Assembly (NCBI GenBank): GCA_038046385.1
Contig: JBBSWH010000003.1
Coordinates: 1-39,473 of the forward strand
Source: Nanobdellota archaeon
GTDB taxonomy: Archaea > Nanobdellota > Nanobdellia > Woesearchaeales > GW2011-AR4
Direction of reading: 5' to 3'
DNA length: 39,473 nt
Shown in pieces: positions 11,760 through 39,388 of this stretch; the first letter of the stretch is position 1; the number at the start of each line of letters is the position of its first letter. The translations under genes and the position numbers were made by a program. The notes under the pieces were generated by a model that made no database searches, was not told where the DNA came from, and saw nothing but the letters and a program-made list of their open reading frames with translations.

Positions 11760-11891
11760 CGCGCCGGGGAGGATTCGAATTCGGGGTGATAGAGAGTTAC
11801 TCAATCACGCCCCCGGCCTAAAGGTATCTCCATCAGCGTAAACGCTTATAGTTAGGAACCTTTCGCTCTATCCAAGCTGAGCTACCGGCGC
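11760..11891 (-). tRNA. tRNA-Arg(CCT) with two introns: 37/38 (11826-11852, 27 nt) and 53/54 (11780-11809, 30 nt)
   Basis: Removing both introns gives GCGCCGG TA GCTC AGCTTGGATA GAGC G AAAGG TTCCTAA CCTTT AGGCC GGGGG TTCGAAT CCTCC CCGGCGC G, a complete cloverleaf. Both junctions have bulge-helix geometry. Confidence 0.93.
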
Positions 11892-15503: not shown

Positions 15504-16049
15504 ATGAACCTGTTAATAGTCAAGGAAGAGATACTTGGCAGTGCGCATGAGCAGGCAAAGCAGATATTAAGCGATGCCAGAAAAGAAGCAAACAGAATTT
15601 CCAAGGAAGCAGAAAAAAAGCTGGAAGAATTCAGAGAAAAAAGCGATGCAGCTGCGAAAAAGGCAATTGAAACCATAAAGAGGCAGGAGATTGCGGCCGG
15701 AGAGCTTGAGAGCAAGAAAATGCTGCTCGAGACAAAGAAGCAGGCAATAGACGCTGCTTTTGCAGAAGCAAGAAAAAGCATTGAGAGCCTTGATGACAAA
15801 AAAAGAGGGGCAATGCTCAAAAAGCTGCTAGAAAAAACCCAAAAGGAAATAGACATTGCAGCCGTTTACTGCAGCAAGAAGGATGCAAAATTTTTCAGCG
15901 GAATAAATACAATTTCAATGGAAATGACTGGCGGATTCATTGCAGAGAACAAAGAAAAAACGATTAGGGTGGACTGCAGCTTTGACTCGCTGCTTCAGCT
16001 TGTCAGAGACAACGAAATGCAGAACCTGAACAATATGCTTTTTGCATAA
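15504..16049 (+). CDS. atpE: A-type ATP synthase subunit E
   Basis: Coiled coil plus GGFIAEN...IRVDCSF; start set at ATG 15504, just after the atpK stop. Confidence 0.92.
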   Translation: MNLLIVKEEILGSAHEQAKQILSDARKEANRISKEAEKKLEEFREKSDAAAKKAIETIKRQEIAAGELESKKMLLETKKQAIDAAFAEARKSIESLDDKKRGAMLKKLLEKTQKEIDIAAVYCSKKDAKFFSGINTISMEMTGGFIAENKEKTIRVDCSFDSLLQLVRDNEMQNLNNMLFA

Positions 16050-16053
16050 CACT

Positions 16054-17124
16054 ATGCTAAAAACCCAGGAGAAACGGAAACTGAATTTGGGAAGGTATCC
16101 CTACACTTACGTAAGAACGAGTGTAATGAAGTCCCTTCTTTTTAAGAAAGAGGACTATCAAAAAATGCTGAAGATGGGATTTTCGGAGATTGCAAAGCAA
16201 ATGCAGGATTCAAATTACAAAAAAGAAATCAACGAGCTTGCGGCAAATTATTCAGGATCTGACCTTTTGGAGCTTGCATTGAACAGGAGCCTTGCAAATT
16301 CATACAAGAAGCTGCTGAGAATATCCCCGAACTCGCTCGATGTTCTCATAAAAGAATATGTAAAGAGAAAAGATGTAGAGGACATCAAGACAATCATAAG
16401 GGGAAAGCTGACAGGCGCAACAAACACCGAAATAACCAATTCAATAACCGGGGCAGGCATTCTTGAATATTCTTTCCTTATATCTTTGCTGAAAAAAGAT
16501 TCGATAGAAGAGATATTGAAGGCAAACAGAATGGTTGAGCTTTCAGCTTTTAAGGAAGGATTAAAGGAGCTGAAGGAAAAGAACAGCATAGTTGCGATTG
16601 AAAATGTAATGGACAAATATTATTACAGCTCTCTTGCCGAGTTTTCAAAAACACTGCCAAAAGAAGGCCATCTTTTCAGAAATTTCATCCAGAAAGAGGT
16701 TGATGCAATGAACATACTTACCCTTTTCAGGCTGAAGAAAGCAAAATTCAGCAAAGAAAAAATAAAAGCGTTCATGATACCCTCATCAGGAAAAATAAAG
16801 ATGTCAAAGCTTGCAGACCTTGCAAACGTAGAGGATTTCGGAGAGCTTGCAAAGGCTTTTGCAAAAACAGAATACGGCAATGCTGTTTCTGAAGGCATTG
16901 AGGAATACAAAAAGGCAGGCTCGCTGATAAAGCTGGAAACCGGGCTGTACAAGCACGTTTTAAGGCAGTCAATGCTCATGCTGCACCAGCATCCTCTTTC
17001 AGTGGATGTAATTTTGGGATATATGTTTGCAAAAGAAATTGAAACAAGAAATTTAAAAATAATCATAAAAGGAAAGCAGCTGAAATTAAAAGAAGATTTC
17101 ATAGAAAATCAACTGGTGTTTTAA
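16054..17124 (+). CDS. atpC: A-type ATP synthase subunit C
   Basis: YPYTYVR...MKSLL, DIKTIIRGK and KEIETRNLKIIIKGK; start set at ATG 16054. Confidence 0.93.
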   Translation: MLKTQEKRKLNLGRYPYTYVRTSVMKSLLFKKEDYQKMLKMGFSEIAKQMQDSNYKKEINELAANYSGSDLLELALNRSLANSYKKLLRISPNSLDVLIKEYVKRKDVEDIKTIIRGKLTGATNTEITNSITGAGILEYSFLISLLKKDSIEEILKANRMVELSAFKEGLKELKEKNSIVAIENVMDKYYYSSLAEFSKTLPKEGHLFRNFIQKEVDAMNILTLFRLKKAKFSKEKIKAFMIPSSGKIKMSKLADLANVEDFGELAKAFAKTEYGNAVSEGIEEYKKAGSLIKLETGLYKHVLRQSMLMLHQHPLSVDVILGYMFAKEIETRNLKIIIKGKQLKLKEDFIENQLVF

Positions 17125-17125
17125 A

Positions 17126-17257
17126 ATGAGAACGACAAAAAACTTTTCCGTGGCATTGGATGTCGGAAATCAAAGATTTCCGATCACCTCGCGGAACTTT
17201 GTTCCGCAACGAATGCCACTTCATGTCGTCGTAAAGGGGCGAAACCGTTTATGGTGA
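17126..17257 (+). repeat. Branched palindromic cassette between atpC and atpF, spanned by a 43-aa mini-ORF
   Basis: Nested stems ACGACA/TGTCGT, GTGGCATT/AATGCCAC, TCGGAAATC-aaa-GATTTCCGA and GCGGAAC-ttt-GTTCCGC. ATG lies 1 nt after the atpC stop and the TGA overlaps the start of atpF. Confidence 0.7.
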
Positions 17258-17550
17258 ACATAGCAGCAGCAGGGTCAAGCGAATTTGTCGTCGGGTTCAG
17301 GCTAGCCGGAGTGAGGTATATTTTTGAGATGAATGACGATTATTTCAAAAAACTGAAGGAGTTAAGAAGCGACAAGGAGCTGGGAGTAGTTGTCGTCGAG
17401 GAAAAAGTAATGGAATCCTTGGAGCAGCATCAGAGGATTGAGATAGAAAGCTCTGTGGAGCCGGTATTCATAACACTGTCAACAAAAGTCGAACAGGATA
17501 GCCTGAAGAGACTGATAAAAAAATCAATAGGCGTTGACCTATGGAAATAG
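17251..17550 (+). CDS. atpF: A-type ATP synthase subunit F
   Basis: GFRLAGV and IKKSIGVDLW. Confidence 0.95.
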   Translation: MVNIAAAGSSEFVVGFRLAGVRYIFEMNDDYFKKLKELRSDKELGVVVVEEKVMESLEQHQRIEIESSVEPVFITLSTKVEQDSLKRLIKKSIGVDLWK

Positions 17551-17581
17551 ATTATAATAAAAATTTTAATGGGTGAAAAAT

Positions 17582-19309
17582 ATGGACAAAGGAGTATTAT
17601 ACAGAATTGCAGGGCCGGTTGTTGTCGCTAAAGGCATCAAGCCGAGAATGTACGATGTTTGCAGAGTTGGAAATGAAAAATTGATGGGAGAAGTCATCCA
17701 GATAGACGGAGACAAAGTCATAATTCAGGTTTATGAAGACACTTCCGGAATGAAACCAGGTGAGCCTGTGTTAAACACAGGAGAGCCGCTGAAAGTCGAG
17801 CTTGGGCCTGGACTTTTGAACAGCATCTACGACGGAATCCAGAGGCCATTGCCTGTTCTGATAAAACAGATGGGGGACTTCATTAAACGAGGGGTTGATG
17901 CACCGGGACTCGATTATTCAAGAATATGGGATTTTAAGGCAACTGCAAAAACCGGAGATAATGTAGCTGGGGGAGCAATACTTGGAGAAGTAGAGGAAAA
18001 TCCAGGAATTATCCATAGAATAATGGTACCTCCAAATCAAAACGGAAAAATAAAAGATTTGAAATCTGGCAAATATACTGTTAACGATGTTATAGGAACA
18101 CTTGACAACGGATTTGAATTAAAATTAAAGCACAACTGGCCTGTAAGGGTTCCAAGGCCTGTATCAAGAAAACTTAAGCCAGATGTACCATTAATAACCG
18201 GACAGAGAATTTTTGACGCATTGTTTCCGCTGGCAAAAGGCGGAGTTGCTGCAATACCAGGGCCGTTTGGAGCTGGAAAAACAGTTTCACAGCAGCAGCT
18301 TGCAAAATGGTCAGACGCAGACATGATTGTCTACGTTGGATGCGGCGAGCGTGGAAACGAAATGACAGAAGTTTTGACAGAGTTTCCTGCATTGATTGAT
18401 CCAAGATCAGGAAGGCCTTTGATGAACAGGACTGTGCTGATAGCAAACACATCAAACATGCCGGTCGCTGCACGAGAAGCTTCGATTTACACAGGCATTA
18501 CAATTGCAGAGTACTACAGGGACATGGGATACTCTGTTGCTCTGATGGCAGATTCAACATCAAGATGGGCAGAGGCAATGAGAGAAATTTCTTCAAGGCT
18601 GGAGGAGATGCCAGGAGAAGAAGGTTACCCTGCTTATTTGTCAACAAGACTGGCGCAGTTTTATGAAAGAGCCGGACGTGTAACGCCGCTTGGAACAAAG
18701 AAAGAAGGATCTGTTTCAGTAATCGGCGCAGTTTCGCCGCCTGGGGGAGATTTTTCAGAGCCGGTAACACAGAGCACTTTGAGAGTTACAAAATGCTTCT
18801 GGGCACTTGACGCAAAATTAGCACAAAGAAGGCACTTTCCGTCGATAAATTGGCTAACATCTTATTCACTTTACCTCGGAACACTTGAGCCATGGTTTGC
18901 AAAGAATGTCGAATCAGACTGGGGATTGCTTGTCGGACAGATGATGAACATCTTGCAGGAAGAAGAAAAACTGCTTGAAATAGTTCAGTTGGTCGGTTCT
19001 GACGCATTGCCAGATCGACAACAGGTTTCGCTGATTACTGCAAGGCTCATCAGGGAAGTTCTTCTTCAGCAGAACGCTTTCCACGAGATTGACACGTTTT
19101 GCGAACTGAAAAAGACATACATGATAATGAAGGCAATAATCAATTTTTCAAAGCTTGCGAACAACGCACTTGACAATGGATTGAGGGTGCAGCAGATTGC
19201 CGCAACAAAATCCAAAGACAGACTGTCTGAAGTCAAGTTCGTGAAAGACTATGAAAAACTATTGTTTGAGATAGCAGGACAGATGGAGAAGGAGATGAGG
19301 TCACAATGA
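17582..19309 (+). CDS. atpA: A-type ATP synthase subunit A (no intein)
   Basis: [17 protein letters not shown] and [11 protein letters not shown]; GGGTGA SD favours ATG 17582 over GTG 17573. Confidence 0.98.
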
Positions 19310-20694
19310 GCACAACAACCACGATGAAGGAATATAAAACAATAACCAAGATCAAAGGACCGCTGGTTTTTGTAGAGAAAACAGAACCAGTTGGATACGC
19401 GGACATTGTAAAGATAGCATTGCCAAGCGGAGAAATAAAGAACGGGCAAGTTCTGGATACGAGCGACGATATTGTAGTTGTTCAGGTCTTTGAAGGAACT
19501 TCAGGAATTGACGTAGAATCCAGAGTAAAATTCTTAGGGGATACGTTAAAATTGAATGTTTCAAAGGACATGCTTGGGCGTGTTTTAAGCGGCTCCGGAA
19601 AGCCTATTGACAACGGTCCAGAAGTTATACCTGAGAAAAAGATTGATATCATCGGCGCTGCAATAAATCCATTTTCAAGAGCGCCTCCGCATGACTTCAT
19701 CCAAACAGGAATTTCAACAATAGATGCGATGAATACTCTAGTCAGAGGGCAAAAACTTCCTTTGTTTTCTGGTTCAGGATTGCCGCATAGTGAGCTTGCT
19801 TTGCAGATTGCCAGACAGGCAAAAGTTGTTGGAAAACAGGAGAACTTCGTAGTTGTATTTGCGGCAATGGGAATCACAAACGAAGAAGCGCAATATTTTA
19901 TGAGCGACTTTGAGCAGACAGGCGCGCTTGAAAGAAGCGTTGTGTTCCTGAATCTTGCAAACGACCCTGCAGTTGAGCGTCTTGTTACACCAAGAATGGC
20001 ACTGACAGCAGCAGAATACTTTGCATATGAGCACGATGCGCACGTTCTTGTTATATTAACCGATATGACAAACTACTGCGAATCTTTAAGAGAAATAGGG
20101 GCGGCTCGTGAAGAGATTCCGGGAAGAAGAGGGTATCCTGGTTACATGTACACTGACCTTGCGATGATATATGAAAGAGCTGGGGTCATCAAGGGAAAGA
20201 AAGGATCTGTTACGCAGATTCCGATTCTTACAATGGTCGGCGACGATATAACCCATCCGATACCGGACTTGACCGGGTACATCACAGAAGGGCAGATTGT
20301 TCTTTCAAGAGAACTTCATAGGAGGGGAGTCTATCCTAGCGTTGACGTTTTGCCTTCACTTTCAAGATTGATGAATCTTGGAATCGGAAGCGACAAAACA
20401 CGCGATGATCATAAGCAAGTATCTGACCAGATGTATGCAGCTTATGCAGAAGGCCGTGATTTACGTGGATTAGTGGCTATTGTCGGAGAAGAAGCTCTTA
20501 GCGACCGCGATAAAAGACTTTTGAAGTTCGCAGCCGAATTCGAGGATAAGTTTGTTCGTCAGAGAAGAGACGAGGACAGAAGCATTGCTGAAACTTTAGA
20601 TTTGGGATGGAAACTGCTTGGAGCAATTCCTGAAAACGAGCTTACAAGAATAAGCCCGGAGCTGAAGAAGAAGTACTACAAGGCGCAAATTTGA
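19306..20694 (+). CDS. atpB: A-type ATP synthase subunit B
   Basis: [29 protein letters not shown] and [17 protein letters not shown]; ATGA overlap with atpA. Confidence 0.98.
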
Positions 20695-20724
20695 TTGTTT
20701 GCATTGTAAAATATAAAATTTAAT

Positions 20725-20839
20725 TTCCGTGCCTTCGGCACAAAAGATAGGCGCCCCCGCATTGGGCGCAAATATATTGTAAAATGTATTGCGAGATGGT
20801 CGGATGCCATCGAGCTGTAATATTTGTTGCGAAGCAACA
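20725..20839. repeat. Cluster of four GC-rich hairpins in the atpB-atpD spacer
   Basis: GTGCC-ttc-GGCAC, GCGCCC..GGGCGC, GATGG..CCATC and TGTTGC-gaa-GCAACA. Confidence 0.65.
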
Positions 20840-20944
20840 GAAAAATAAATAACAAAAACAATAACGAAAAAACTCAATAACGAATAACATTAAACAAAAT
20901 CAATAAAATATTACAAATAAAAATTATCAAAACAATTACAAAAA

Positions 20945-21562
20945 ATGGCACAGGACGTAAAACCGACAAGAAGCGAATTATTGAAGCTGAAGAAGCAGAT
21001 TAAGCTGGCTAAATCAGGATATTCGCTATTGAAGAAGAAAAGAGACGGCCTGATACTTGAGTTTTTTGAGATACTGAAGAAGGCAAAGACACTAAGGGCA
21101 GAACTTGTTGCAGAATATCTTGTTGCAATTGAAAGCATAAATGTTGCGAGGGCGATTGAAGGCGACTTAAAGGTGAAGTCTGTCGCGATGTCAATCAAAA
21201 AGGCGCCTGACATAAAGCTTGCGACAAAGAACATAATGGGGGTAAAAGTCCCGAAGATTGAATCCGCTGTCATCAAGAAGGGATTCATGGAAAGGGGCTA
21301 CGGAGTTTACAATTCATCTGCAATCGACGAAGCTGCTGCAGCGTATGAAAAAGTTTCTGAAAAGATACTGCTTGCTGCTGAAGTAGAGACTTCAATGAGA
21401 AAACTGCTTAATGAAATCGAGAAGACAAAAAGAAGGGTCAATGCGCTTGAGTTTGTTGTTATTCCCCATCTGGATAAACAGAAGGCATTCATTCAGCTTC
21501 GTTTGGAAGAGATGGAACGTGAAAACGTGTTTAGGATGAAGAGAATCAAGGCGAAAGCCTGA
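20945..21562 (+). CDS. atpD: A-type ATP synthase subunit D
   Basis: KPTRSEL, GYSLLKKKRD, KTKRRVNALE and LEEMERE. Confidence 0.97.
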   Translation: MAQDVKPTRSELLKLKKQIKLAKSGYSLLKKKRDGLILEFFEILKKAKTLRAELVAEYLVAIESINVARAIEGDLKVKSVAMSIKKAPDIKLATKNIMGVKVPKIESAVIKKGFMERGYGVYNSSAIDEAAAAYEKVSEKILLAAEVETSMRKLLNEIEKTKRRVNALEFVVIPHLDKQKAFIQLRLEEMERENVFRMKRIKAKA

Positions 21563-21678
21563 TGCCGGAATTAAATAAATTTAGATTGTTCTCAAAAATT
21601 ACATATTAGTTTGAGGCAGCAATGCTATAAATTCTTTGTAAGGAAATATATTTAAAGGAATACGCAAAAAGAAAGAAC

Positions 21679-22065
21679 ATGACAATAATCCTTAAGGTCA
21701 GGTATGGCTTGCTTGCAGATTTTGATTTGCACCAACCAACTGAAAAATTTGAATTTATTAGCGGAGATGGAAGAGCCGGAACACAAATACAACTGAATAG
21801 CGGATTGACAATCGGCAGGTCAGGCTCAGATTTATTAATCGCTCCGGCAATGACGTGTGTTTCAAGAATGCACTGCCAAATAAATTCTCCTTTGCTTGGA
21901 GAGTGGAACATACAAGATTTAGGCTCAAAATTTGGAACATTCTTAAAAATAGAGGACAATTTAATGAAATTACAGCCAAATGAAGAAGTTGCACTGCAAA
22001 AAGGAAGCATAATAATTCTAGGAGACCCCAGAAATGATAGGAGAGTTGAATTAGAAGTAGAATAA
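21679..22065 (+). CDS. FHA domain protein
   Basis: TIGR, VSRMH and DLGSKFGTF (usually NGT), ending IILG. Confidence 0.88.
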   Translation: MTIILKVRYGLLADFDLHQPTEKFEFISGDGRAGTQIQLNSGLTIGRSGSDLLIAPAMTCVSRMHCQINSPLLGEWNIQDLGSKFGTFLKIEDNLMKLQPNEEVALQKGSIIILGDPRNDRRVELEVE

Positions 22066-22095
22066 CCTAATCTTAATTAAATAAATATTTTTGAC

Positions 22096-22221
22096 ATGAA
22101 AAAATCAACAAAACAAAAAATTCTGAAGAAAGCTCCAATAATCCTTCATATAATCAATGCTGTTCTTCTGGTATTCTTTCTTGTTTACCTTTATTTTTGG
22201 GTTAAGGCGAGGACGAAGTAA
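22096..22221 (+). CDS. 41-aa single-TM small protein (not in ORF track)
   Basis: MKKSTKQKILKKAPIILHIINAVLLVFFLVYLYFWVKARTK*: basic N-terminus and one clean TM helix, filling the intergenic gap. Confidence 0.65.
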   Translation: MKKSTKQKILKKAPIILHIINAVLLVFFLVYLYFWVKARTK

Positions 22222-22259
22222 AGCAAAAATTTAAAAGCAAATATTAACTACCACAAAAA

Positions 22260-23507
22260 ATGCAAAAATTCCTAACATTAAACGATTTGGATGTGAAAGG
22301 AAAGCGAGTTCTTGTGAGAGTTGACTTTAACGTTCCGCTTGACAAAAAGACAGGCGAAATAACTGATGATAAAAGAATAAAGGAATCATTGCCGACGATA
22401 AAATTTCTGATTGAGAGAAATGCTAAGGTCATTCTTTGCTCGCATCTTGGAAGGCCGGACGGAAAAGCTGCAGAAAATTTAAGGATGGACAAAGTTGCTT
22501 TGCGTTTGCAGCAGATGATTAACAGGAAAGTTTTGAAATTAAATGACTGCGTCGGGGATTATGTCAAGGAACACATCATGAAAATGAGAGATGGAGATGT
22601 TATTTTGCTTGAAAACTTAAGGTTTCATGCAGAAGAAGAGGAAAATGATGCAGAATTCTCAAAACAATTAGCTGATTTGGCTGAATTGTATGTTAATGAT
22701 GCGTTTGGAACATGCCACAGGGCGCATGCTTCAACTTACGGAGCTGCGCAATACCTGCAGTCAGCAGCAGGATTCCTTGTCGAGAAGGAATTAAGGATAA
22801 TGGGCAAGGCAATGGAAAACCCTGAAAGGCCTTTTGTCGGCATTTTGGGCGGAGTAAAGATATCTGACAAGATAAAAGTGATTGAAAGCTTGCTGTCAAA
22901 AGTTGATAAACTGCTGCTTGGAGGTGCGATGATATTCACATTCTACAAGGCGCAGGGAAAAAATATTGGAGCGTCGAAGTTTGACGAAACAGGAGTAGGA
23001 TTGGCAAAGAGATTATTGAAGTCCTACGGAAGCGAAGCTTCCGGGGAACTCGCAAATCAAAAATTTGCGAGTAACCCAAAAATAATACTGCCGACAGATA
23101 TTGTTGTTGCAGACAAGTTTGATGCAAACGCTGAATCAAGTATTGTTGATGTTGATTCAATGCCGGATGAATGGCTTGGGCTGGATATCGGGCCGGAGAC
23201 AATAAAAAATTACAAACAAATACTTTCAGGCGCAAAAACAATAGTCTGGAACGGGCCAATGGGCGTGTTTGAATTTGAAAAGTTTGCAGCGGGCACAAAG
23301 GAAATTGCGCAGTTCATGACAACAATCAAAGCAGTTACAATCATAGGCGGCGGCGATTCAGCTGCTGCTGTCGAGAAGTTTGGATACGCTTCAAAATTGA
23401 CGCACGTCAGCACAGGCGGAGGCGCTTCTCTTGAATTCTTTGAAGGAAAAAAACTTCCTGGAATTGAAGCGCTGGAAGAAAGTTTTAGTAAAAATCAAGT
23501 AGCGTAA
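22260..23507 (+). CDS. pgk: Phosphoglycerate kinase, bacterial-type, with an insertion of about 17 aa
   Basis: RVDFNVP, SHLGRP, LLENLRF, NDAFGTCHRAHAS, WNGPMGVFE and HVSTGGGASL. Confidence 0.98.
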   Translation: MQKFLTLNDLDVKGKRVLVRVDFNVPLDKKTGEITDDKRIKESLPTIKFLIERNAKVILCSHLGRPDGKAAENLRMDKVALRLQQMINRKVLKLNDCVGDYVKEHIMKMRDGDVILLENLRFHAEEEENDAEFSKQLADLAELYVNDAFGTCHRAHASTYGAAQYLQSAAGFLVEKELRIMGKAMENPERPFVGILGGVKISDKIKVIESLLSKVDKLLLGGAMIFTFYKAQGKNIGASKFDETGVGLAKRLLKSYGSEASGELANQKFASNPKIILPTDIVVADKFDANAESSIVDVDSMPDEWLGLDIGPETIKNYKQILSGAKTIVWNGPMGVFEFEKFAAGTKEIAQFMTTIKAVTIIGGGDSAAAVEKFGYASKLTHVSTGGGASLEFFEGKKLPGIEALEESFSKNQVA

Positions 23508-25252
23508 TAATATTTTCCAGAATCTTTTTGTTCTCTGTCTAAACGAGAATCTAACTTGTTAACTCTCGGCCTGTTTGTTTCCGGATCTCTTCTTAAAGTG
23601 ATTTTAAGCTCTTTCAAAAATATATTCATGCCTTCTTCCATGTCAAACGGACCGTGAACATTGCCTTCAACAGCAGGCTTTCCTTCAAAGACTGTAATTT
23701 TGTCGCTTATGTAGTCTATAAACAGCAAATCGTGGTCTACAATCAATGCAGATGATCCTTTGTGTTCGATAAAATCACGCACAACTTTTGACAAAACAAG
23801 CCTTTGTTCAGAATCAAGATAAGCTGATGGCTCGTCCATAAGGTATAAATCAGCATCATGCTGCAGGCAATGCACAATCGCAACGCGTTGCAGTTCTCCT
23901 CCTGACAATTCACTTAATTTTTTTAATGACAGCGGAACAATATTCAATGGCTCTATTAACTGGTTTTCGTATTTTTTGAATGCTGTATTAAGAACATCAA
24001 CAACAAGCTCGTCAGACGCTTCAAGATACTGGGGCTTGTAAGAAACTTTTACTTTTTGCGATATTTCCCCTTTGTCCTGTTTTATGACAGAAGCAAGAAT
24101 CTTGATGAACGTTGTCTTTCCTGTTCCGTTTTCTCCGAGAATGCCTATGATTTCGTTTCTGAGTATAACTCCTTCATCTGCTTTTAGCGTGAAATGTCCA
24201 AGTTTTTTCTCAACGTTTTTCCACGATGTAATAATATCTTTTGTATGCTTCTTTTTTATCGGAGGCTTTTCTGCGAATTTTATTTTTGAATCCCTAAACC
24301 TTACGTTTTCTTCCTTTATGTAGCCTGACAGATATACATTGATTCCGTTTTTGACTGGCTTTATTCCGGACACAATCCCGTACGCGCCTTCATTTCCGTA
24401 CATCAGATGGATTAAATCGCAGATATAATCCAGAATTATCAAATCGTGCTCTACAACAAGCACTGCTGTTTTTTCATTGATAAGGTTTTTTATGAATTTG
24501 CTTACTTTAATCCTTTGTTTTATGTCAAGATAGCTTGCCGGCTCGTCAAAAATGTACAGATTTGCGTCTTTCAGCACAGTTGCTGCAATTGCAACCCTTT
24601 GCAGTTCTCCTCCTGAAATTTCTTCAATTTCGTTTTCAAGAATTTCGTTTAACTCTAATTCCGTTGCAATCTCTTTTAACCTGTGCTTTTCATCAACTTT
24701 CTTTAATAAATCAATCACTTTGCCTTTTGTTGACTTTGGAATTAATTCCACTTGCTGAGGCTTGTAAGCAATTTTTATTTCTCCTTTCTTTATCTTCTCA
24801 AAAAATCCCTGCGCTTCTGTTCCTTTGAAAAAAGAGATTAACTGGTCATAATCTGTTTCTGTCGCGTTCCAGTCGCCGAAGTTTGGCTTCAAGACACCGG
24901 CAATTACCCTTACGGCTGTTGATTTTCCGATGCCATTCACTCCCAAAATTCCGGTTACGTTGCCAAACGTTGGAGTTGGTACAGAGTAAAGAACGAATTT
25001 GTTTTCCCCAAAGCGATGGATTGGGTTTTTTGTCAGTTCTTCAGGCAGGTTTATTATTTTGATTGAATGAGGCGCTGCCTTTGGACAGATTCCGCAGCCG
25101 TTGCATAACAGCTCGTCAATTCTGAGCTTTCCATCGGCTTGTATTGTGATGCACTCTTTCCCTGTCCTGTTTACAGGGCAAATGCTCTTTATGTGGAGCT
25201 TCTGGTGCATATCCTTCAGCTTTTCGTTATCGACAATAGCTATTCGTGTCAT
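23495..25252 (-). CDS. rli1: Ribosome recycling ATPase ABCE1/Rli1
   Basis: CPVNR..CNGCGIC Fe-S domain, two NBDs (GVNGIGKS and GENGTGKT), SGGELQR twice, C-terminal RPRVNK..S.LD.EQK..G.YYY. Confidence 0.97.
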   Translation of the reverse strand: MTRIAIVDNEKLKDMHQKLHIKSICPVNRTGKECITIQADGKLRIDELLCNGCGICPKAAPHSIKIINLPEELTKNPIHRFGENKFVLYSVPTPTFGNVTGILGVNGIGKSTAVRVIAGVLKPNFGDWNATETDYDQLISFFKGTEAQGFFEKIKKGEIKIAYKPQQVELIPKSTKGKVIDLLKKVDEKHRLKEIATELELNEILENEIEEISGGELQRVAIAATVLKDANLYIFDEPASYLDIKQRIKVSKFIKNLINEKTAVLVVEHDLIILDYICDLIHLMYGNEGAYGIVSGIKPVKNGINVYLSGYIKEENVRFRDSKIKFAEKPPIKKKHTKDIITSWKNVEKKLGHFTLKADEGVILRNEIIGILGENGTGKTTFIKILASVIKQDKGEISQKVKVSYKPQYLEASDELVVDVLNTAFKKYENQLIEPLNIVPLSLKKLSELSGGELQRVAIVHCLQHDADLYLMDEPSAYLDSEQRLVLSKVVRDFIEHKGSSALIVDHDLLFIDYISDKITVFEGKPAVEGNVHGPFDMEEGMNIFLKELKITLRRDPETNRPRVNKLDSRLDREQKDSGKYYYAT

Positions 25253-25391
25253 TGTTTTAGAGGTTTGATTAGATTATACTAGAAAAAATGCCTTATGTAT
25301 GATATATTCAACATTACTCGTAAAAAGGATGCCTTCTTTTTAAATATTTTGAAACAAAAAGCTATATAAAAGCATAAAAATACCCTATTCT

Positions 25392-25550
25392 ATGAAATGC
25401 GAGATATGCTCACAGAAGATTAATACGACTTTCTTAGGCAAGATACTGGGAACGCATGTGAAGGATTTAAAGGGGAAGAAGCATCTTGTATGCTTTGAAT
25501 GCCAGAAGAAGTTCGATACGAAAGAAAAGATATTGGAAGCGGTTAAATGA
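25392..25550 (+). CDS. 52-aa CxxC...CxxC zinc-finger protein (not in ORF track)
   Basis: MKCEICSQKINTTFLGKILGTHVKDLKGKKHLVCFECQKKFDTKEKILEAVK*; TATATAAA box at 25363-25370. Confidence 0.8.
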   Translation: MKCEICSQKINTTFLGKILGTHVKDLKGKKHLVCFECQKKFDTKEKILEAVK

Positions 25551-25553
25551 TAG

Positions 25554-25946
25554 TTACTTCTTTCTAAATTTAAATTTCCTGTTATAATCATCGTGGCTGA
25601 TTATATCCAAGACGAATGCAATAATCTCAATCTCATTGCTTTCTAGCGTGTAAATCATCCTCCAGTAATCAGGCAGGTCAGCAATGAAGAGATTATCAGC
25701 ACCATATTTTTGCCTGTACTCTTTTGGAATCAAATCTTTCTTTGCGTTTTCCCCGTAAAATGGGTTGCTGGCAAGAATGTCAAAAATCCTGTTGATTGCA
25801 TCCAAAAGAGCAATCTCTTTTGTGCCTGTTAGCCCCTTGCTATGATGTTCTCCAACAATTTTATTTAAGCCTTGGAATGCTTTTTCAGCGTCGCCAACAA
25901 GCCTGATAGAAATCTTTTTCCTTAGCTTGCCTTTGTAGGTTTTCAT
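25554..25946 (-). CDS. RelE/ParE-superfamily-like protein, putative toxin
   Basis: Basic 130-aa protein with L..NP..G, LPDYWRMIY and H.DY; ATGA overlap with the upstream gene. Confidence 0.6.
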   Translation of the reverse strand: MKTYKGKLRKKISIRLVGDAEKAFQGLNKIVGEHHSKGLTGTKEIALLDAINRIFDILASNPFYGENAKKDLIPKEYRQKYGADNLFIADLPDYWRMIYTLESNEIEIIAFVLDIISHDDYNRKFKFRKK

Positions 25947-26230
25947 CTAACAACCAATCCTTGCATTTTTTTAAGCCTGCTCTGCGGCTTGAATGCCCAA
26001 AGAACCTTGTCATCATGGACAACAATTTTCCCGCTGTATTCCAAATAGTCAATGACCGCCATCAAAGTCTGATGCATGACTTGTTTTGGAAGCATCCTCT
26101 TTAGTTTTCCAATAGTCAATACTTCTCCTGCCTTCATTAGAGTTTCTTCCACCATTAATACTGTATTAAGGGTCGGACTTCTTTGTTCACTATAATCCCT
26201 TTTCCTGATTTCAAGTATTTCTGGGTTCAT
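25943..26230 (-). CDS. Small winged-HTH-like protein, putative antitoxin/regulator
   Basis: SPTLNTVLMVE...L.R.LPK.V..QTL..VIDYLE.SGKI; palindromes over its start region. Confidence 0.6.
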   Translation of the reverse strand: MNPEILEIRKRDYSEQRSPTLNTVLMVEETLMKAGEVLTIGKLKRMLPKQVMHQTLMAVIDYLEYSGKIVVHDDKVLWAFKPQSRLKKMQGLVVR

Positions 26231-26262
26231 ATCAATTGATATGGTATCAACTGATATATAAA
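26228..26262 (-). promoter_or_regulatory. Two TATCA-N2-TGATA operator palindromes between the TATA box and the start codon
   Basis: Perfect CATATCAATTGATATG (26228-26243) and TATCAACTGATA (26245-26256); TTTATATA on the minus strand at 26255-26262. Confidence 0.7.
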
Positions 26263-26315
26263 TGTTTCGGTTTTCAATAACCTTTAAAATACTGAAATAA
26301 ATCTAGTTCTATACT

Positions 26316-26440
26316 GCCTTCGTAGCTCAGCGGTAGAGCGTCGCTTTCGTAAGCATGAATTTTTGGTCAAGCTTTTTAGCTTGCCTAAAAAGGTTGTTTG
26401 AAACAAGCGAAGGTCAGGGGTTCAAATCCCTTCGAAGGCT
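26316..26440 (+). tRNA. tRNA-Thr(CGT) with a 53-nt intron at 37/38 (26352-26404)
   Basis: GCCTTCG TA GCTC AGCGGTA GAGC G TCGCT TTCGTA|A AGCGA AGGTC AGGGG TTCAAAT CCCTT CGAAGGC T; central helix TTCG/TGAA with 3-nt bulges. Confidence 0.94.
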
Positions 26441-26461
26441 TTTTGTGGCTTTATGCCACAA

Positions 26462-26535
26462 CTTCGTAGAATAGTTCTTTTGGTCAAGCTTTTCTTGTAT
26501 AAGAAAAGGTTGGTGGTAATCCCTTCGAAGGCTTT
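26462..26535 (+). repeat. Degenerate partial duplicate of tRNA-Thr (5' 8-mer, intron hairpin, 3' 18-mer)
   Basis: CTTCGTAG matches 26318-26325, TTTTGGTCAAGCTTTT matches 26361-26376, and AATCCCTTCGAAGGCTTT matches 26425-26442. Confidence 0.8.
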
Positions 26536-26722
26536 ATACTATAGTTTAACTCTCTTATAGACAAGTCGCTTATATTCGAAACAACACAGGAAGCGATTTC
26601 TCATGTTAAGAAGAAGTATTTGGATGAGAATAAGGGGAATTGATATTATATTTCTTAAACTATCTCATAAATTTTACTAATAAGTAGTAACATTTTTAAA
26701 GCAAGAAATATTACTATTTGAC

Positions 26723-27961
26723 ATGTCACAATTAGAATTAACCATATCACAAACAGAAACAGCGCAAAGAATTTTGCAAACACTTGCTCAAGCTAGTGAA
26801 CCCACTTTAATAATAGTTGAAGGAATAAGTGGCGTTGGCAAAAGTGCAGTTCTTGATTCAGTTAAAAGAGAAATTAAATCTGCTAAAGGAAGGATCTTGG
26901 AAAGCTACGAACTCCAACATTATTGGTTGGATTCAGATGCAATTAGCTTACTTAAATCAAGCAAGCATCTTATAAAAACTTGTACCCCTTATGAATCCGA
27001 ATCTTTGCTTAAAAAATTAGAGGAGCATAGGGGCCACAGACAAATTAGCACAATAATTTTACCAGGCATGGATCTAGGCGAGATTGGTGTGTATTTAGAA
27101 CCAAGAGCTAATCAAGCTCAAATGGATATTAATGAGTTGGCAAATCATTCTTTAGGCGTTCCATTATTGGCTGACATGTTATTAATGAACTCAAGAGACC
27201 CTAAAGATGCAGCAATAATAGCAGGAAATCATCTTTCATGTAACTTTGGCCCAGAATTGACTGGAAAAATTGGAGCTAACATGGCTTACCTTGCTAACTA
27301 CTTGAAAATCCCCCCAACAAAAGATGTTTTGCAAGCTGCTACAAATGGAAACTCTTTTGGAGGAGTTTATCACAGTTTGGACCAGATTTTAGCAAGACAA
27401 TTAGAACTAAGGCAAAGAGGGATGAATGAAGAAAGCCCATTGTTCACTGCACCTGAAAGTGTAAAAATATATGATTCAAAATTAGGACGCTATGATGGAA
27501 GCAATATCCATATTTTTGCACCTATACAAAATGCAGACGATTTAACTAGAGTGCAAGAGGCTTTTGAATTATACAGACAAAATGGCCGTGAAAGGCGATT
27601 TAGAATGTTTGGTGCCATGTGGAGAAAAACCGGGATGGCTTTGACAGAAGGAGATTCTGTACACAGTAATGAAAGTGAATGCCAAGATATAGAAAAAACA
27701 TCCCAAAAATATGAATCTGCGTATAATGGCGGCCAACTACCATTAAAAACTGAAGATTCAAGCGTTGGAAGCTTATTTGTTGAAAGCTGGGATCATGAGG
27801 GTCAAGGATCTCATCCAAAGCGTATTGCATGGATGGTAGAAAGCCTGCTTCAGCAAAGAGGAATATCTTATTTAGTGAATATCCCTCATATTAATGTTGC
27901 ATATAAATTTGATGCAAAAACAAATAGTGTGACTATACTTGAGAAACCTATCAAACTTTGA
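26723..27961 (+). CDS. Orphan P-loop NTPase with STAND-like features
   Basis: IIVEGISGVGKS Walker A, ILPGMDLGEI and SLGVPLLA (GxP motif); Walker B not evident. Confidence 0.6.
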   Translation: MSQLELTISQTETAQRILQTLAQASEPTLIIVEGISGVGKSAVLDSVKREIKSAKGRILESYELQHYWLDSDAISLLKSSKHLIKTCTPYESESLLKKLEEHRGHRQISTIILPGMDLGEIGVYLEPRANQAQMDINELANHSLGVPLLADMLLMNSRDPKDAAIIAGNHLSCNFGPELTGKIGANMAYLANYLKIPPTKDVLQAATNGNSFGGVYHSLDQILARQLELRQRGMNEESPLFTAPESVKIYDSKLGRYDGSNIHIFAPIQNADDLTRVQEAFELYRQNGRERRFRMFGAMWRKTGMALTEGDSVHSNESECQDIEKTSQKYESAYNGGQLPLKTEDSSVGSLFVESWDHEGQGSHPKRIAWMVESLLQQRGISYLVNIPHINVAYKFDAKTNSVTILEKPIKL

Positions 27962-27966
27962 TTATT

Positions 27967-29178
27967 TCACTCATACCTAAGCGCATCCACCGGCCTTAGC
28001 TTCGATGCTCTTCTCGCCGGCAGGAATCCTGCTGCTGCGCCTACGAATAAAGAGAATAGCAAGCATCCGATTATCAAAGACAGAGGAAAAGCCGGCTTCA
28101 GTAAAGCAAATCCGTTTGCTGCTGCGATTGAGCCGCCTGCTGAAGAAATCAAGAATCCGAGAAACACGCCAAGAGCGCCGCCAATCAAGCCAATCAGCCC
28201 GGCTTCTACGACGAAAATCATAAGTATATCATTATTCCTAGCCCCTATAGCTTTCATCACGCCAATCTCCTTTGTTCTTTCAATGATGGAAGTGTACATT
28301 GTGTTCATTATGTTGACAAACGCAACAACCATTGAAATCAAAGCAATCAAGACTAGCATTCCGTTAATCACATTAATCACTGTAGTAAAGGTAGCCAAGG
28401 CGTCTTCAAAAGTCTGAACAAAGAAATCCTCTTTGCCTTTGTCCTGATCCTTGAACTTGCGAAGCTTTTCGCTTATGCTTTTGGAAAGCTCAGGAGGGGT
28501 TGTATCTTTCTGCGAGCTAAGGATTATAAATCCAAACTTATCCTTTGAAGCGGGGTGCAGGATTTCAAAGCCTTCCATTGTGATGTAGACATTTGTGTCG
28601 TCCTGCGGGTTTCCGACTTCCTTGTAAAAACCGATAACCTCGAAAGTTTTGCCGTCTATTGATATCTTGTCCCCAACATGAATTGCATTTTTGAATATCT
28701 TGTCTTCAAACTGGTAATTGTACCCAAGGATGACTTTGTCAAGGTCGCCTTTTTTAAGGCTCCTTCCTTTTATGATTTCAGTTGCGAAAGTTTCCTCGAT
28801 AAAATCAATCTCATCTGTTTCAAGCCCCATGAGGAAAGGGTATTTTTTCTGCTCCTTGAACATAACTTCTCCTGCTCTCATGTACATGCCGGTTATTTTG
28901 TCAACTCCCTTTACTTTTTTTATGAAATCAACATCTTCTTTTGAAAGAAAGAAATTCTCGTCTGTTCCCGGCGCTCCGATTCCTTTTGCCTGCACGAAAA
29001 GCTTATTGCGCCCGGACTGGTCTGCTATAGTATCCACATATCTCTGCATGCCTATTCCGAAGCTGAGGAGGGCAAATATTGCGGTTATTCCTATTAATAT
29101 TGAAAGTATTGTAAGGCCGCTTCTAAGCTTTCTTTTCCTGAAATTCTGCAATGCGTATTTTACCTCGTGTATGTTCAT
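27967..29178 (-). CDS. MacB/FtsX-family ABC permease
   Basis: KLRSGLTILSILIGI, NIMNTMYTSIIERTKEIGVMKAIGA and PARRASKLRPVDALRYE. Confidence 0.95.
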   Translation of the reverse strand: MNIHEVKYALQNFRKRKLRSGLTILSILIGITAIFALLSFGIGMQRYVDTIADQSGRNKLFVQAKGIGAPGTDENFFLSKEDVDFIKKVKGVDKITGMYMRAGEVMFKEQKKYPFLMGLETDEIDFIEETFATEIIKGRSLKKGDLDKVILGYNYQFEDKIFKNAIHVGDKISIDGKTFEVIGFYKEVGNPQDDTNVYITMEGFEILHPASKDKFGFIILSSQKDTTPPELSKSISEKLRKFKDQDKGKEDFFVQTFEDALATFTTVINVINGMLVLIALISMVVAFVNIMNTMYTSIIERTKEIGVMKAIGARNNDILMIFVVEAGLIGLIGGALGVFLGFLISSAGGSIAAANGFALLKPAFPLSLIIGCLLFSLFVGAAAGFLPARRASKLRPVDALRYE

Positions 29179-29349
29179 TTTGAACTAACCTCTTTTGCAT
29201 TATTCTTATTCAAAACCTCGGAAATCCTTGATTTCCGATGGTGACCGAAAATCCCATCGGGATTTATCGGCATGAATGCTACGAACGCCTGACCTGCGAG
29301 TGAGCTCGTGCGAACTCGCTCACTTTTCACTGAGTATGTGTTCATTTTG
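29172..29349 (-). repeat. Multi-hairpin cassette flanked by an 11-bp direct repeat and spanned by a 56-aa mini-ORF (29175-29345)
   Basis: CAAAATGAACA (minus strand) at both ends; hairpins TCGGAAATC-ctt-GATTTCCGA, AAATCCC-atc-GGGATTT and AGTGAGC..GCTCACT; ATGA overlaps at both ends. Confidence 0.75.
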
Positions 29350-30568
29350 CAGCCCTCAATGATTCAACTGGGCTCATCTTGGATGCCTGGTATGCAGGCA
29401 AGACTCCAAATGCTGTCCCAAGTATGAACGAAAAAAACAAAGCCCCAATTATTAATGTCAAACTGACGCTTGCCTGTATCAAATCAGAGCCAAGTGCGAT
29501 TCTTCCAATAAATGATATGCCGTATGCCAAAGTCATTCCCAGCGCTATCCCTATCACCCCTCCGACCATTCCAAGCAATCCGGACTCAAAAAAGAATATC
29601 GTGAATATTGCCGAATCTCTAGCTCCAATAGATTTCATTATTCCTATTTCTTTTGTTCTTTCAAGCACGGAAGTGTACATTGTGTTCATTATTCCTATGC
29701 CGCCAACTGCAAGAGAAATTCCAGCTATGATATAAATAAATAATTGCACTGCAAAAAGAGTTGAATTCAGAGTTTCAAGGATCTGCTGCGGGCTGTCAAC
29801 CTGAAAATCTTCCTCGCCTTTGTCAACATTCCTTTCTTTTCTCAAAAGCTTTTCAACATTTTCTTTTACATTTGTAACTTCATTCTGATCCTTGACTTTT
29901 ACCGCTATTATGTCTACTTTTTCTTTGTCGGCTCCCAAAACATCAATAAGAACATCTTCATTTATCAGAAACACGCTGTCAAAGATGAAGCTGCCTTTTT
30001 TTTCCATTATGCCGACAACTTCAAAAGGTATTTTTTTAATTAGAATCTTATCCCCCACTTTTATCCTTTTTCCAAATTCATCTTCTTTTGTGTAATCGTT
30101 TCCAATCAGAACTTTTTTTCCGTCTCCTTCTTTCAAAAGGCGCCCTTCTGCGGCCTTTATGTTGACCATTTTCTCAAAAATCTTACGATTTTCTCCATGA
30201 GGGACAGAAGCAGTAAACCCAATATCCTGCTGTTCATTGAACTCTATCGGTGCAGATTCTATATACCTGTTAAAAGCAGCTTCAACACCATTAATTCCTT
30301 TTATTTTGTCTGCAAGGTCTTTGTTTAAAGGATTTGCAACAGCAGTTCCGGGAGGGCCTGCGAATGCAATGCCGGAAGCCTGCACGCTTAAAATATCAGG
30401 GCCGAGAAAACCAAACTGGGAAGTTATTGCTAATCGCAAGCCTTCTCCAAGGCCTATCAAAGAGATCACTGCAGCAATCCCTATGAAGATGCCAATCATG
30501 GTGAGCCATGACCTTAACTTCCTGCTTTTCAGGCTTTTCAGCGAAAATGCTGCGTAATCCTTTAGCAT
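29342..30568 (-). CDS. MacB/FtsX-family ABC permease
   Basis: KLRSWLTMIGIFIGI and GIMNTMYTSVLERTKEIG; start set at ATG 30568, 1 nt after the upstream stop. Confidence 0.95.
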   Translation of the reverse strand: MLKDYAAFSLKSLKSRKLRSWLTMIGIFIGIAAVISLIGLGEGLRLAITSQFGFLGPDILSVQASGIAFAGPPGTAVANPLNKDLADKIKGINGVEAAFNRYIESAPIEFNEQQDIGFTASVPHGENRKIFEKMVNIKAAEGRLLKEGDGKKVLIGNDYTKEDEFGKRIKVGDKILIKKIPFEVVGIMEKKGSFIFDSVFLINEDVLIDVLGADKEKVDIIAVKVKDQNEVTNVKENVEKLLRKERNVDKGEEDFQVDSPQQILETLNSTLFAVQLFIYIIAGISLAVGGIGIMNTMYTSVLERTKEIGIMKSIGARDSAIFTIFFFESGLLGMVGGVIGIALGMTLAYGISFIGRIALGSDLIQASVSLTLIIGALFFSFILGTAFGVLPAYQASKMSPVESLRAAK

Positions 30569-39259: not shown

Positions 39260-39388
39260 GGGTCAGTAGCTCAGCTTGGATAGAGCGACAGACATCATGT
39301 GTCGAACCTTCTATCTTTGCTGGCAGTAAGCTGAGAAGCCTTTAAAGCTTCGCTTAATAGGTCGGGGGTTCGAATCCTCCCTGACCCG
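39260..39388 (+). tRNA. tRNA-Arg(TCT) with three introns: 30/31 (39292-39306), 37/38 (39314-39328), 42/43 (39334-39357)
   Basis: Splicing gives GGGTCAG TA GCTC AGCTTGGATA GAGC G ACAGC CTTCTAA GCTGT AGGTC GGGGG TTCGAAT CCTCC CTGACCC G with a perfect ACAGC/GCTGT stem. TTTATAAA upstream, T-tract downstream. Confidence 0.92.

Follow-up and report, generated by a model that had tools for sequence, protein, structure and literature searches.

A tRNA-Thr gene of a Nanobdellota archaeon probably carries two separate insertions of a small gene-less hairpin element, one in its intron and one beside its 3' end

Several described systems resemble in part the short hairpin element that is the subject of this study. 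Short interspersed nuclear elements (SINEs) are eukaryotic, non-autonomous retroposons that spread by target-primed reverse transcription. Casposons and CRISPR spacers, which are integrated by Cas1, produce duplications of 14-15 bp or of one whole repeat, and prefer tRNA ends or hairpin-forming targets. The systems based on repetitive extragenic palindromes (REP/REPIN-RAYT) and those of the IS200/IS605 type are not known to leave a target duplication. Introns of tRNA genes are said to have undergone "transposition" in Thermoproteales, reportedly described by Fujishima and colleagues in 2010. [quoted passage not shown] The parts considered of Sugahara et al. 2012 (PMC3293823) set out a tRNA-disruption model and tie a mobile element to intron gain in a tRNA-Thr gene, and those considered of a preprint on Asgard archaea describe repeated tRNA intron gains and report no general arrival route (bioRxiv 10.64898/2026.10.13.758758). 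The rise and growth of archaeal tRNA introns is an open question, which we address here with a tRNA-Thr(CGU) locus of a Nanobdellota archaeon. The stretch that was analysed, hereafter the window, is the entire 39,473-nucleotide (39.5-kb) contig C3 of this genome (1.28 Mb, 38% G+C, 85%-complete); C numbers denote contigs of this genome (G000), G numbers related genomes and L numbers compared stretches.

We identified a tRNA-Thr(CGU) gene at 26316-26440 on the forward strand (Rfam RF00005, 57.4 bits; gathering threshold 29), in whose anticodon loop the alignment places an insertion of 55 nt, and the minimum-free-energy fold of its precursor is a cloverleaf (z = -4.2). ARAGORN found no tRNA in the window without its intron mode and miscalled the anticodon with introns allowed, and the Rfam call was used instead. 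A predicted bulge-helix-bulge motif, with a 4-bp helix (26346-26349/26399-26402) and its bulges, can be drawn by hand, while the minimum-free-energy fold pairs this region otherwise. Downstream of the gene lies what we refer to as the echo, which consists of a 75-bp insert and the right-hand member of an 18-bp direct repeat (Table 1). The insert folds into three hairpins, of which we call the conserved 3'-terminal one H3 and the two small ones 5' of it H1 and H2, with a T-rich linker between H2 and H3.

Table 1. Features in and around the tRNA-Thr(CGU) gene (positions are those of the window)
Feature	Position	Strand	Basis and remarks
A+T-rich box, ~45 nt upstream of the tRNA, outside the element	26250-26274	+	Recurrence in relatives
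5' exon of tRNA-Thr(CGU)	26316-26351	+	Rfam, minimum-free-energy cloverleaf; limits hand-drawn; identical in L170
tRNA-Thr(CGU) intron, 53 nt, canonical 37/38 position	26352-26404	+	Rfam insertion; limits hand-drawn
H3 hairpin, older copy, sense, mid-intron	26363-26396	+	Strict family pattern; closest copy C9:29232-29269
3' exon of tRNA-Thr(CGU)	26405-26440	+	Rfam, minimum-free-energy cloverleaf; identical in L170
Left copy of the 18-bp duplication (last 16 nt of the tRNA and 2 T), in the working tRNA	26425-26442	+	Exact repeat
75-bp inserted element	26443-26517	+	Folds, sister copies, alignment with compensatory pairs
H1 hairpin of the insert	26443-26461	+	Fold
H2 mini-hairpin of the insert, containing most of the 8-mer	26463-26471	+	Fold
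H3 hairpin of the insert	26480-26512	+	Strict pattern, fold
5 nt after H3 in the insert	26513-26517	+	
Right copy of the 18-bp duplication, without function of its own	26518-26535	+	Exact repeat; no tRNA match

The initial annotation of this DNA had reported that the intron hairpin recurs downstream, bracketed by an 8-mer from the tRNA 5' end and an exact 18-bp copy of the tRNA 3' end. We found both the recurrence and the bracketing in place, and above chance as judged from 100 shuffles of the window, the source of all k-mer expectations given here. The two hairpins have a common foot with a common G.G mismatch and carry differently paired tips. The hairpin 16-mer occurs exactly at 26361 and 26478 (with up to 2 mismatches, 3 matches in the window against 0.16 expected), the 18-mer has 2 matches in the window with up to 3 mismatches (0.07 expected), and the 8-mer is found at 26318-26325, at 26462-26469 and a third time at 19845 (3 matches against 0.37 expected). 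Two stretches, 26326-26562 and 26431-26661, match contigs from other studies (X11 and X8, respectively) without a single difference, which excludes the local misassembly that had already been deemed unlikely. Among the contigs of 4 runs, one with a different intron represents the tRNA of another organism.

Each of the two hairpins has its nearest relative elsewhere in the genome. The intron H3 is 92% identical to the copy at C9:29232-29269 and the H3 of the echo is 93% identical to the copy at C1:46701-46757, while the two lie 117 bp apart. We therefore conclude that they are separate arrivals and not the products of a local duplication. Sister copies of the insert with all three hairpins are present in the same genome at C1:79510-79582 and C1:46702-46773, and their stems vary by paired changes. 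The suggestion that a mobile hairpin resides in the tRNA intron was thus borne out by a dispersed family with 11 strict copies in this genome and by two independent arrivals at this locus. Together, these observations indicate that tiny mobile elements of one family, which carry no genes, have probably inserted at this locus on two separate occasions.

In the older of these events, H3 would have entered a short canonical intron that tRNA-Thr(CGU) already had and lengthened it to 53 nt, and this copy would be removed together with the spliced intron. In the younger event, a three-hairpin copy would have been inserted 2 nt beyond the tRNA 3' end. Two staggered breaks would have delimited 18 bp of target, which would then be copied to both sides of the insert, with repair synthesis making the duplication, so that the upstream copy preserves the tRNA and the downstream copy remains as the echo.

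Duplications of this kind accompany the family at other sites. The same genome contains duplications of 18, 17-19, 20, 30-33 and 31 bp at five different targets. Besides the tRNA-Thr site, these include a 17-19 bp repeat of a tRNA-Leu 3' end and its trailer (C1:79494-79612), repeats of 20 bp and 30-33 bp containing the start codons of opposite-strand genes (C1:79040-79170 and C10:38390-38500), and a 31-bp imperfect repeat around the copy at C1:13320-13520; a copy on C4 has a repeat of a stop-codon region. Across the family, we scored direct repeats (score of at least 15) at 109 copies that lie sufficiently distant from a sequence end and at 650 random places. A repeat with its right member at the H3 end was observed at 21 of the 109 copies, the mirrored geometry at 6 of 109, and a repeat at 7 of the 650 random places. 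Relative to the end of H3, the start of the right repeat lies between -8 and +7 nt. Repeats that reach the score measure 15-64 bp. After exclusion of three tandem arrays and of a 64-bp repeat that is a pair of neighbouring tRNA-Leu genes, the longest real duplications measure 45 bp, and duplication length differs from copy to copy. As the repeats are placed at the H3 end, the element is polar, with H3 as its 3' end and a 5' part that varies by subfamily. Judged from these sister sites, the 18-bp repeat at tRNA-Thr appears to be the element's own target duplication.

The initial annotation had offered two other origins for the echo, neither of which stood up. In the first, the 18-bp repeats would be attL and attR of a tyrosine-integrase element that entered the 3' end of tRNA-Thr and collapsed to 75 bp. 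The locus resembles an att site in having a direct repeat of the 3' part of a tRNA beside the tRNA gene, and tRNA 3' ends are classical integration sites. The same genome even provides a case, with an integrase (C1:55098-55586) beside tRNA-Leu (C1:56142-56259) and a relic tRNA end ~9.4 kb off, and both flanks of tRNA-Thr differ from those in the related contig L170 (see below), as in a hot spot of gene turnover. However, att sites bracket kilobases with a recombinase gene, whereas the repeats here enclose 75 non-coding bp that are themselves a complete member of the hairpin family, the sisters of which lie at unrelated targets, non-tRNA ones among them, with repeats of their own. Neither an integrase nor any other gene is located between the repeats or next to them, and we found no third copy of the 18-mer in the 1.28-Mb genome, even with 2 mismatches. 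We consider an att origin very improbable.

The second origin, a tandem copy of the tRNA gene with its intron that has decayed and serves as an integration decoy or a spare, would account for the order of 8-mer, hairpin and 3' end, which mirrors that of the gene, and the 8-mer region does pair over 5 bp with the repeated acceptor strand in the fold. Against such a duplicate, the echo gave no second match to the tRNA model (26280-26580, E up to 10), H1 has no counterpart in the tRNA, and both H3 and the 5' hairpins of the echo are nearer to copies on C1 than to the intron. In addition, the same architecture stands behind a tRNA-Leu gene, where it is unlike that gene's 5' end, and sister copies differ from the 8-mer at one base and at its pairing partner, a paired double change as expected of a small hairpin. 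The chance that some 8-mer is common to the 75-nt insert and the 125-nt gene is ~0.1 by our own estimate, and the identity of the 8-mer to the tRNA 5' end is probably a coincidence on top of a family motif in H2, given how the motif varies among the sisters. A tRNA duplicate is, of all the explanations we weighed, the one to which we give least credence.

To describe the family of which both insertions are members, we used a strict H3 pattern for the census and the reversed pattern as a control; a looser regular expression was set aside, as its 301 matches were mostly noise. The strict pattern occurs 11 times in the genome (control 0), and the 16-mer has 7 exact occurrences there, so the hairpin is not absent elsewhere, an outcome for which the initial annotation had allowed. 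It is present in 21 of 25 genomes of the genus and in 1 of 16 genomes from other families of the order. A scan of Archaea, in which each species was represented by a single genome, yielded at least 117 stretches that contain the pattern (131 copies when this genome is included). Outside DPANN, it was found in records titled Methanosarcina, ANME-1/Methanophagales, Thermococcus, Nitrosotalea, Thermoproteota, Methanomethylicales and Halobacteriota, and five non-DPANN genomes hold 1-4 copies each (control 0); some records titled "Methanosarcinales" are congeners of our genome (for example, the coordinates of L063 match G003:C46). Rfam contains no family that matches the hairpin at E up to 10. A derivation of H3 from the D-loop and variable loop of a tRNA was weighed by eye and not retained.

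The H3 hairpin consists of a sequence-conserved foot with the G.G mismatch, a short T-rich leader and a variable, self-complementary tip. The tips pair inward over 4.2 bp compared to 0.45 bp when shuffled, and a residual loop of at most 8 nt is left in 83 of 105 distinct tips (shuffled: 13 of 105). In 127 of 128 distinct contexts, a T directly precedes the pattern on its 5' side. Both partners have changed in 7 of 16 consensus pairs (alignment A1), and H1 is present in 15 of 15 folds. The family is associated with tRNA genes in both orientations, with 36 of 111 copies at most 130 nt from a T-loop motif (25 of 1340 random places). In Thermoproteota and Methanomethylicales records, the 3' end of H3 abuts the 3' end of an opposite-strand tRNA.

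No neighbouring gene recurs with the element, as the largest open reading frame (ORF) cluster in the neighbourhoods of the 117 loci covers 4 of them, and 1 of 2.9 million viral contigs has the H3 pattern. The element is like a MITE in being small, gene-less, multi-copy and intergenic, with target duplications and an enzyme in trans. It differs in that its 5' and 3' termini do not pair with each other in folds (H1 and H3 each self-pair, and only the 3' end is constant), that its duplications of ~15-45 bp vary among copies, and that the 85%-complete genome gave no match to DDE_Tnp_1, rve or TnpB and the copies have no recurrent ORF beside them. We found no description of such an element in the open-access literature, excluding the supplementary MITE lists of PMC11602168, which might contain such sequences. 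It is apparently an undescribed archaeal mini-element that is gene-less and hairpin-ended.

H3 might alternatively act mainly as a functional hairpin, for example a leader or an RNA signal for processing or for protein binding, that is kept by selection at many sites, was spread by ordinary duplication and is not itself a mobile element. Its foot is exact across archaeal phyla at 1-4 copies per genome outside DPANN, a compensatory change preserves the stem in the intron, and it occurs within an RNase P RNA gene and directly upstream of ribosomal-protein, RNA-polymerase and exosome starts in G003. This explanation does not fit the flanking duplications of unrelated targets, the occurrence of H3 in both orientations in tRNA genes or its presence and absence at one tRNA among congeners. 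In our genome, a plausible ORF lies just downstream of only 1 of the 11 copies. We regard this explanation as improbable; a function acquired by H3 after insertion is compatible with mobility, and the two could coexist.

The settings in which the hairpin may function are as follows. In L084 ("Methanosarcinales archaeon Met33H"), a hairpin at 4701-4729 lies within an archaeal RNase P RNA gene (4672-4983; Rfam, 200 bits), just ahead of the conserved core region. The module thus appears, from its position in the predicted gene, to be tolerated within another essential structured RNA. At least 4 copies with identical hairpins are found 1-11 nt upstream of start codons in G003 (L152, L153, L156, L157), and the genes behind them, read by eye from translations, encode ribosomal proteins L2 and S4e, an RNA polymerase subunit and an exosome subunit. 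At S4e there is an imperfect ~22-nt repeat that includes the start codon. The 3' arm of H3 in G003 could serve as, or mask, the ribosome-binding site. In a variant (L156 2755-2826; L043 6951-7028), the second hairpin region alternatively pairs with the 5' arm of H3 in the minimum-free-energy fold, giving two exclusive structures. This variant lies, in L043 and L036, just upstream of a gene that by eye starts like GMP synthase, and its modelled pair of structures may form a regulatory leader there.

The relative order of the two insertions at tRNA-Thr comes from L170, a metagenome contig that is syntenic with the window (82-87% nucleotide identity over 15530-25562 and 27957-29923). Its tRNA-Thr exons are identical, and its intron contains the same sense H3 with 4 differences, of which 2 form one compensatory stem pair (A:T to C:G). 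L170 is without the echo, and homology ends exactly at 26442, the end of the left repeat, and resumes at 27957. As L170 has the intron H3 and lacks the echo, the intron copy is older than the divergence of these lineages, and among the stretches compared only the lineage of the window has the echo.

We compared the tRNA-Thr(CGU) genes of 9 genomes of the genus, in which the hairpin intron is not universal. The gene has no intron in G002, a D-loop intron and none at 37/38 in G006, an intron of 7-18 nt without a hairpin in G003, G012, G014 and G016, and a long intron of unrelated sequence in G015. In G024, an intron of ~71 nt contains H3 in antisense, with its 3' end abutting the 5' splice site, and a long intron in G011 has an antisense H3 in the same position. 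The echo is absent from the tRNA-Thr loci of all 9 congeners. The opposite orientations of H3 in one tRNA gene indicate at least two insertion events and, moreover, insertion in DNA, not reverse splicing into a tRNA transcript. The few bases pairing with the anticodon loop are already present at the end of the short introns of congeners, and the simplest reading of these sequences is that H3 was inserted into an existing short intron, which would be a safe landing place.

Among 26 tRNAs of our genome that were examined for further cases, one more contains H3. This tRNA-Arg(GCG) (G000:C1:35448-35595, L169) has a D-loop intron of ~70 nt that is largely an antisense copy of the element, 94% identical over 53 nt to C4:37556-37608. 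In G008 (L143), the sole congener compared for this tRNA, there is no intron, and on that comparison the D-loop intron is a possible case of intron birth by insertion. The link that had been drawn between repeat mobility and intron growth is supported by these intron states of congeners and by H3 in the introns of L170, G024 and G011, and we infer that insertion of the hairpin at the DNA level enlarges tRNA introns. As with the introns of Thermoproteales and Asgard archaea, introns of different tRNA genes have related sequences in common, and introns have repeatedly been gained or changed. Unlike in those systems, the module is also found outside tRNA genes, with duplications and in both orientations, which indicates DNA insertion.

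The element would most likely act as a folded single strand that is recognised through the H3 foot, with the joining enzyme supplied in trans and recognising the structure or the H3 foot. We tentatively favour a structure-specific enzyme that nicks and joins at the DNA level, a mechanism to which we assign nearly an even chance. A hint of a single-stranded DNA stage comes from G-N-A triloops closed by C:G, a type of loop that is unusually stable in DNA. Such triloops are favoured in the small hairpins 5' of H3. On the H3 strand they occur in the 90 nt upstream at 19 of 116 copies, and the complementary form does so at 6 of 116; they are seen downstream of H3 at 1 of 116 and at 26 of 1688 random places. 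Replication template switching or flap ligation is a mechanism we think rather unlikely.

An unlikely, although somewhat better placed, route would be spread as RNA by target-primed reverse transcription, in the manner of a SINE, with H3 as the 3' handle for a reverse transcriptase. The element shares with SINEs a constant 3' end, varied 5' modules, target duplications whose length varies widely (15-45 bp) and a preference for tRNA genes, and the conservation of its structure is RNA-like. On the other hand, it resides in an archaeon and has neither a tRNA-derived head nor an A-rich or repeat tail. A search with the Pfam RVT_1 model, the only reverse transcriptase model used, found no match in our genome or in 20 of 25 genus genomes, including G003, which has 11 copies and at least 4 identical hairpins; genus genomes are incomplete, and the absence of an enzyme from them is weak evidence. 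We saw no series of 5'-truncated copies and no extra microhomology at the junctions (2.5 versus 1.8 in the control, n=16), and the G-N-A triloop bias on the H3 strand also does not fit an RNA route.

Two further kinds of system resemble the element in part. With REP/REPIN-RAYT and IS200/IS605 (PATE-like) ends, it has in common an imperfect hairpin with a conserved mismatch, a short leader 5' of the foot, many dispersed copies and, in our genome, one Y1 (HUH) transposase gene. The clear duplications at 21 of 109 copies set it apart, as does a Y1 gene that is not flanked by H3. With casposons and Cas1-mediated spacer integration, it has in common long target duplications and tRNA ends or hairpin-forming targets, but no Cas1 was found in our genome, the duplication length is not fixed, and the insert is a specific structured sequence. 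The element thus shares traits with MITEs, SINEs and REP/IS200 hairpins but fails a defining feature of each.

Several observations weigh against two insertions by a mobile element, or against the enzyme we propose for them. Around the intron H3 there is, by eye, at most a 4-nt repeat, and 88 of the 109 copies are without a clear repeat; the target duplication is either often decayed or not obligatory. L170 has different DNA with a different gene beyond 26442 and so offers no strict empty site for the echo, and loss of the echo, as opposed to gain, is not formally excluded by it. No joint that skips the echo was seen in the contigs of 4 runs or in reads. That the foot is exactly the same in DPANN as in Methanosarcina, ANME-1, Thermococcus and Nitrosotalea records is hard to reconcile with a purely selfish repeat that has no conserved partner. 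As for such a partner, RVT_1, TnpB, Cas1, DDE_Tnp_1 and rve were not found in our 85%-complete genome, which encodes three tyrosine recombinases and the Y1 transposase (C10:41904-42236), the latter in an open frame of 173 codons; the recombinases of this genome include two that are Xer-like. There is no H3 within 3 kb of the Y1 gene, and the elements have no similarity to this Y1 region or to 6 Y1 loci of relatives. Across the genus, Y1_Tnp is found in 14, RVT_1 in 5 and H3 in 21 of 25 genomes, and no enzyme tracks the element: 9 of the 21 H3-bearing genomes are without Y1_Tnp, while the richest (G000 with 11 copies, G003 with 11, G008 with 6 and G010 with 5) all have Y1_Tnp and all lack RVT_1.

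The surroundings of the tRNA-Thr gene, and other tRNAs, showed additional features. The segments 25562-26312 and 26443-27956 are unrelated DNA in L170, with the genes beyond them collinear, and the tRNA-Thr gene appears from this alignment to sit in a small hot spot of gene turnover. The downstream segment in the window contains the accessory gene of a 412-aa AAA_16 ATPase, which has a match in 1 of 42 congeners (G020, 30% identity) and was dropped as a synteny anchor for this reason. The box at 26250-26274 recurs over 20-25 nt at 92-100% identity in dozens of places in at least 30 related genomes, a distribution which suggests that it is probably a shared promoter cassette (B recognition element and TATA box, BRE/TATA). 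The window contains two more tRNAs with insertions of at least 69 nt, at 39260-39388 on the forward and 11760-11891 on the reverse strand (Rfam, 37.7 and 30.8 bits), which have 23 identical bases in common at their 5' ends. In G028 (L134) and G032 (L139), which represent two other families of the order, short non-coding inserts without H3 lie downstream of tRNA-Thr between repeats of its 3' end, with three copies of this end in total in G028 and two in G032; this tRNA-Thr site seems to be used by other element families as well, with the same scar left behind. A tRNA-Ser of our genome (G000:C15:15265-15468) has two exact partial copies of itself, of 32 and 30 nt, 40-120 nt away.

The tRNA-Thr(CGU) locus displays one module twice, once free-standing with its insertion scar and once buried in an intron that would be spliced out, and relatives document the states before and after insertion of the hairpin. 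It is possible, though rather doubtful, that the family represents both an undescribed insertion route and a main source of the growth, perhaps the birth, of archaeal tRNA introns, in which a folded, hairpin-ended single strand of 30-130 nt is joined at widely and variably staggered breaks by an enzyme outside the known transposase, integrase and reverse-transcriptase types, possibly a conserved host enzyme. The hairpin foot provides a search handle with which insertions can be counted across archaeal genomes. No described prokaryotic element family matches the insertion chemistry to which the long, variable duplications point. These long duplications also rebuild the gene end that the insertion interrupts, which would explain how such elements are tolerated in the very compact genomes of DPANN archaea.

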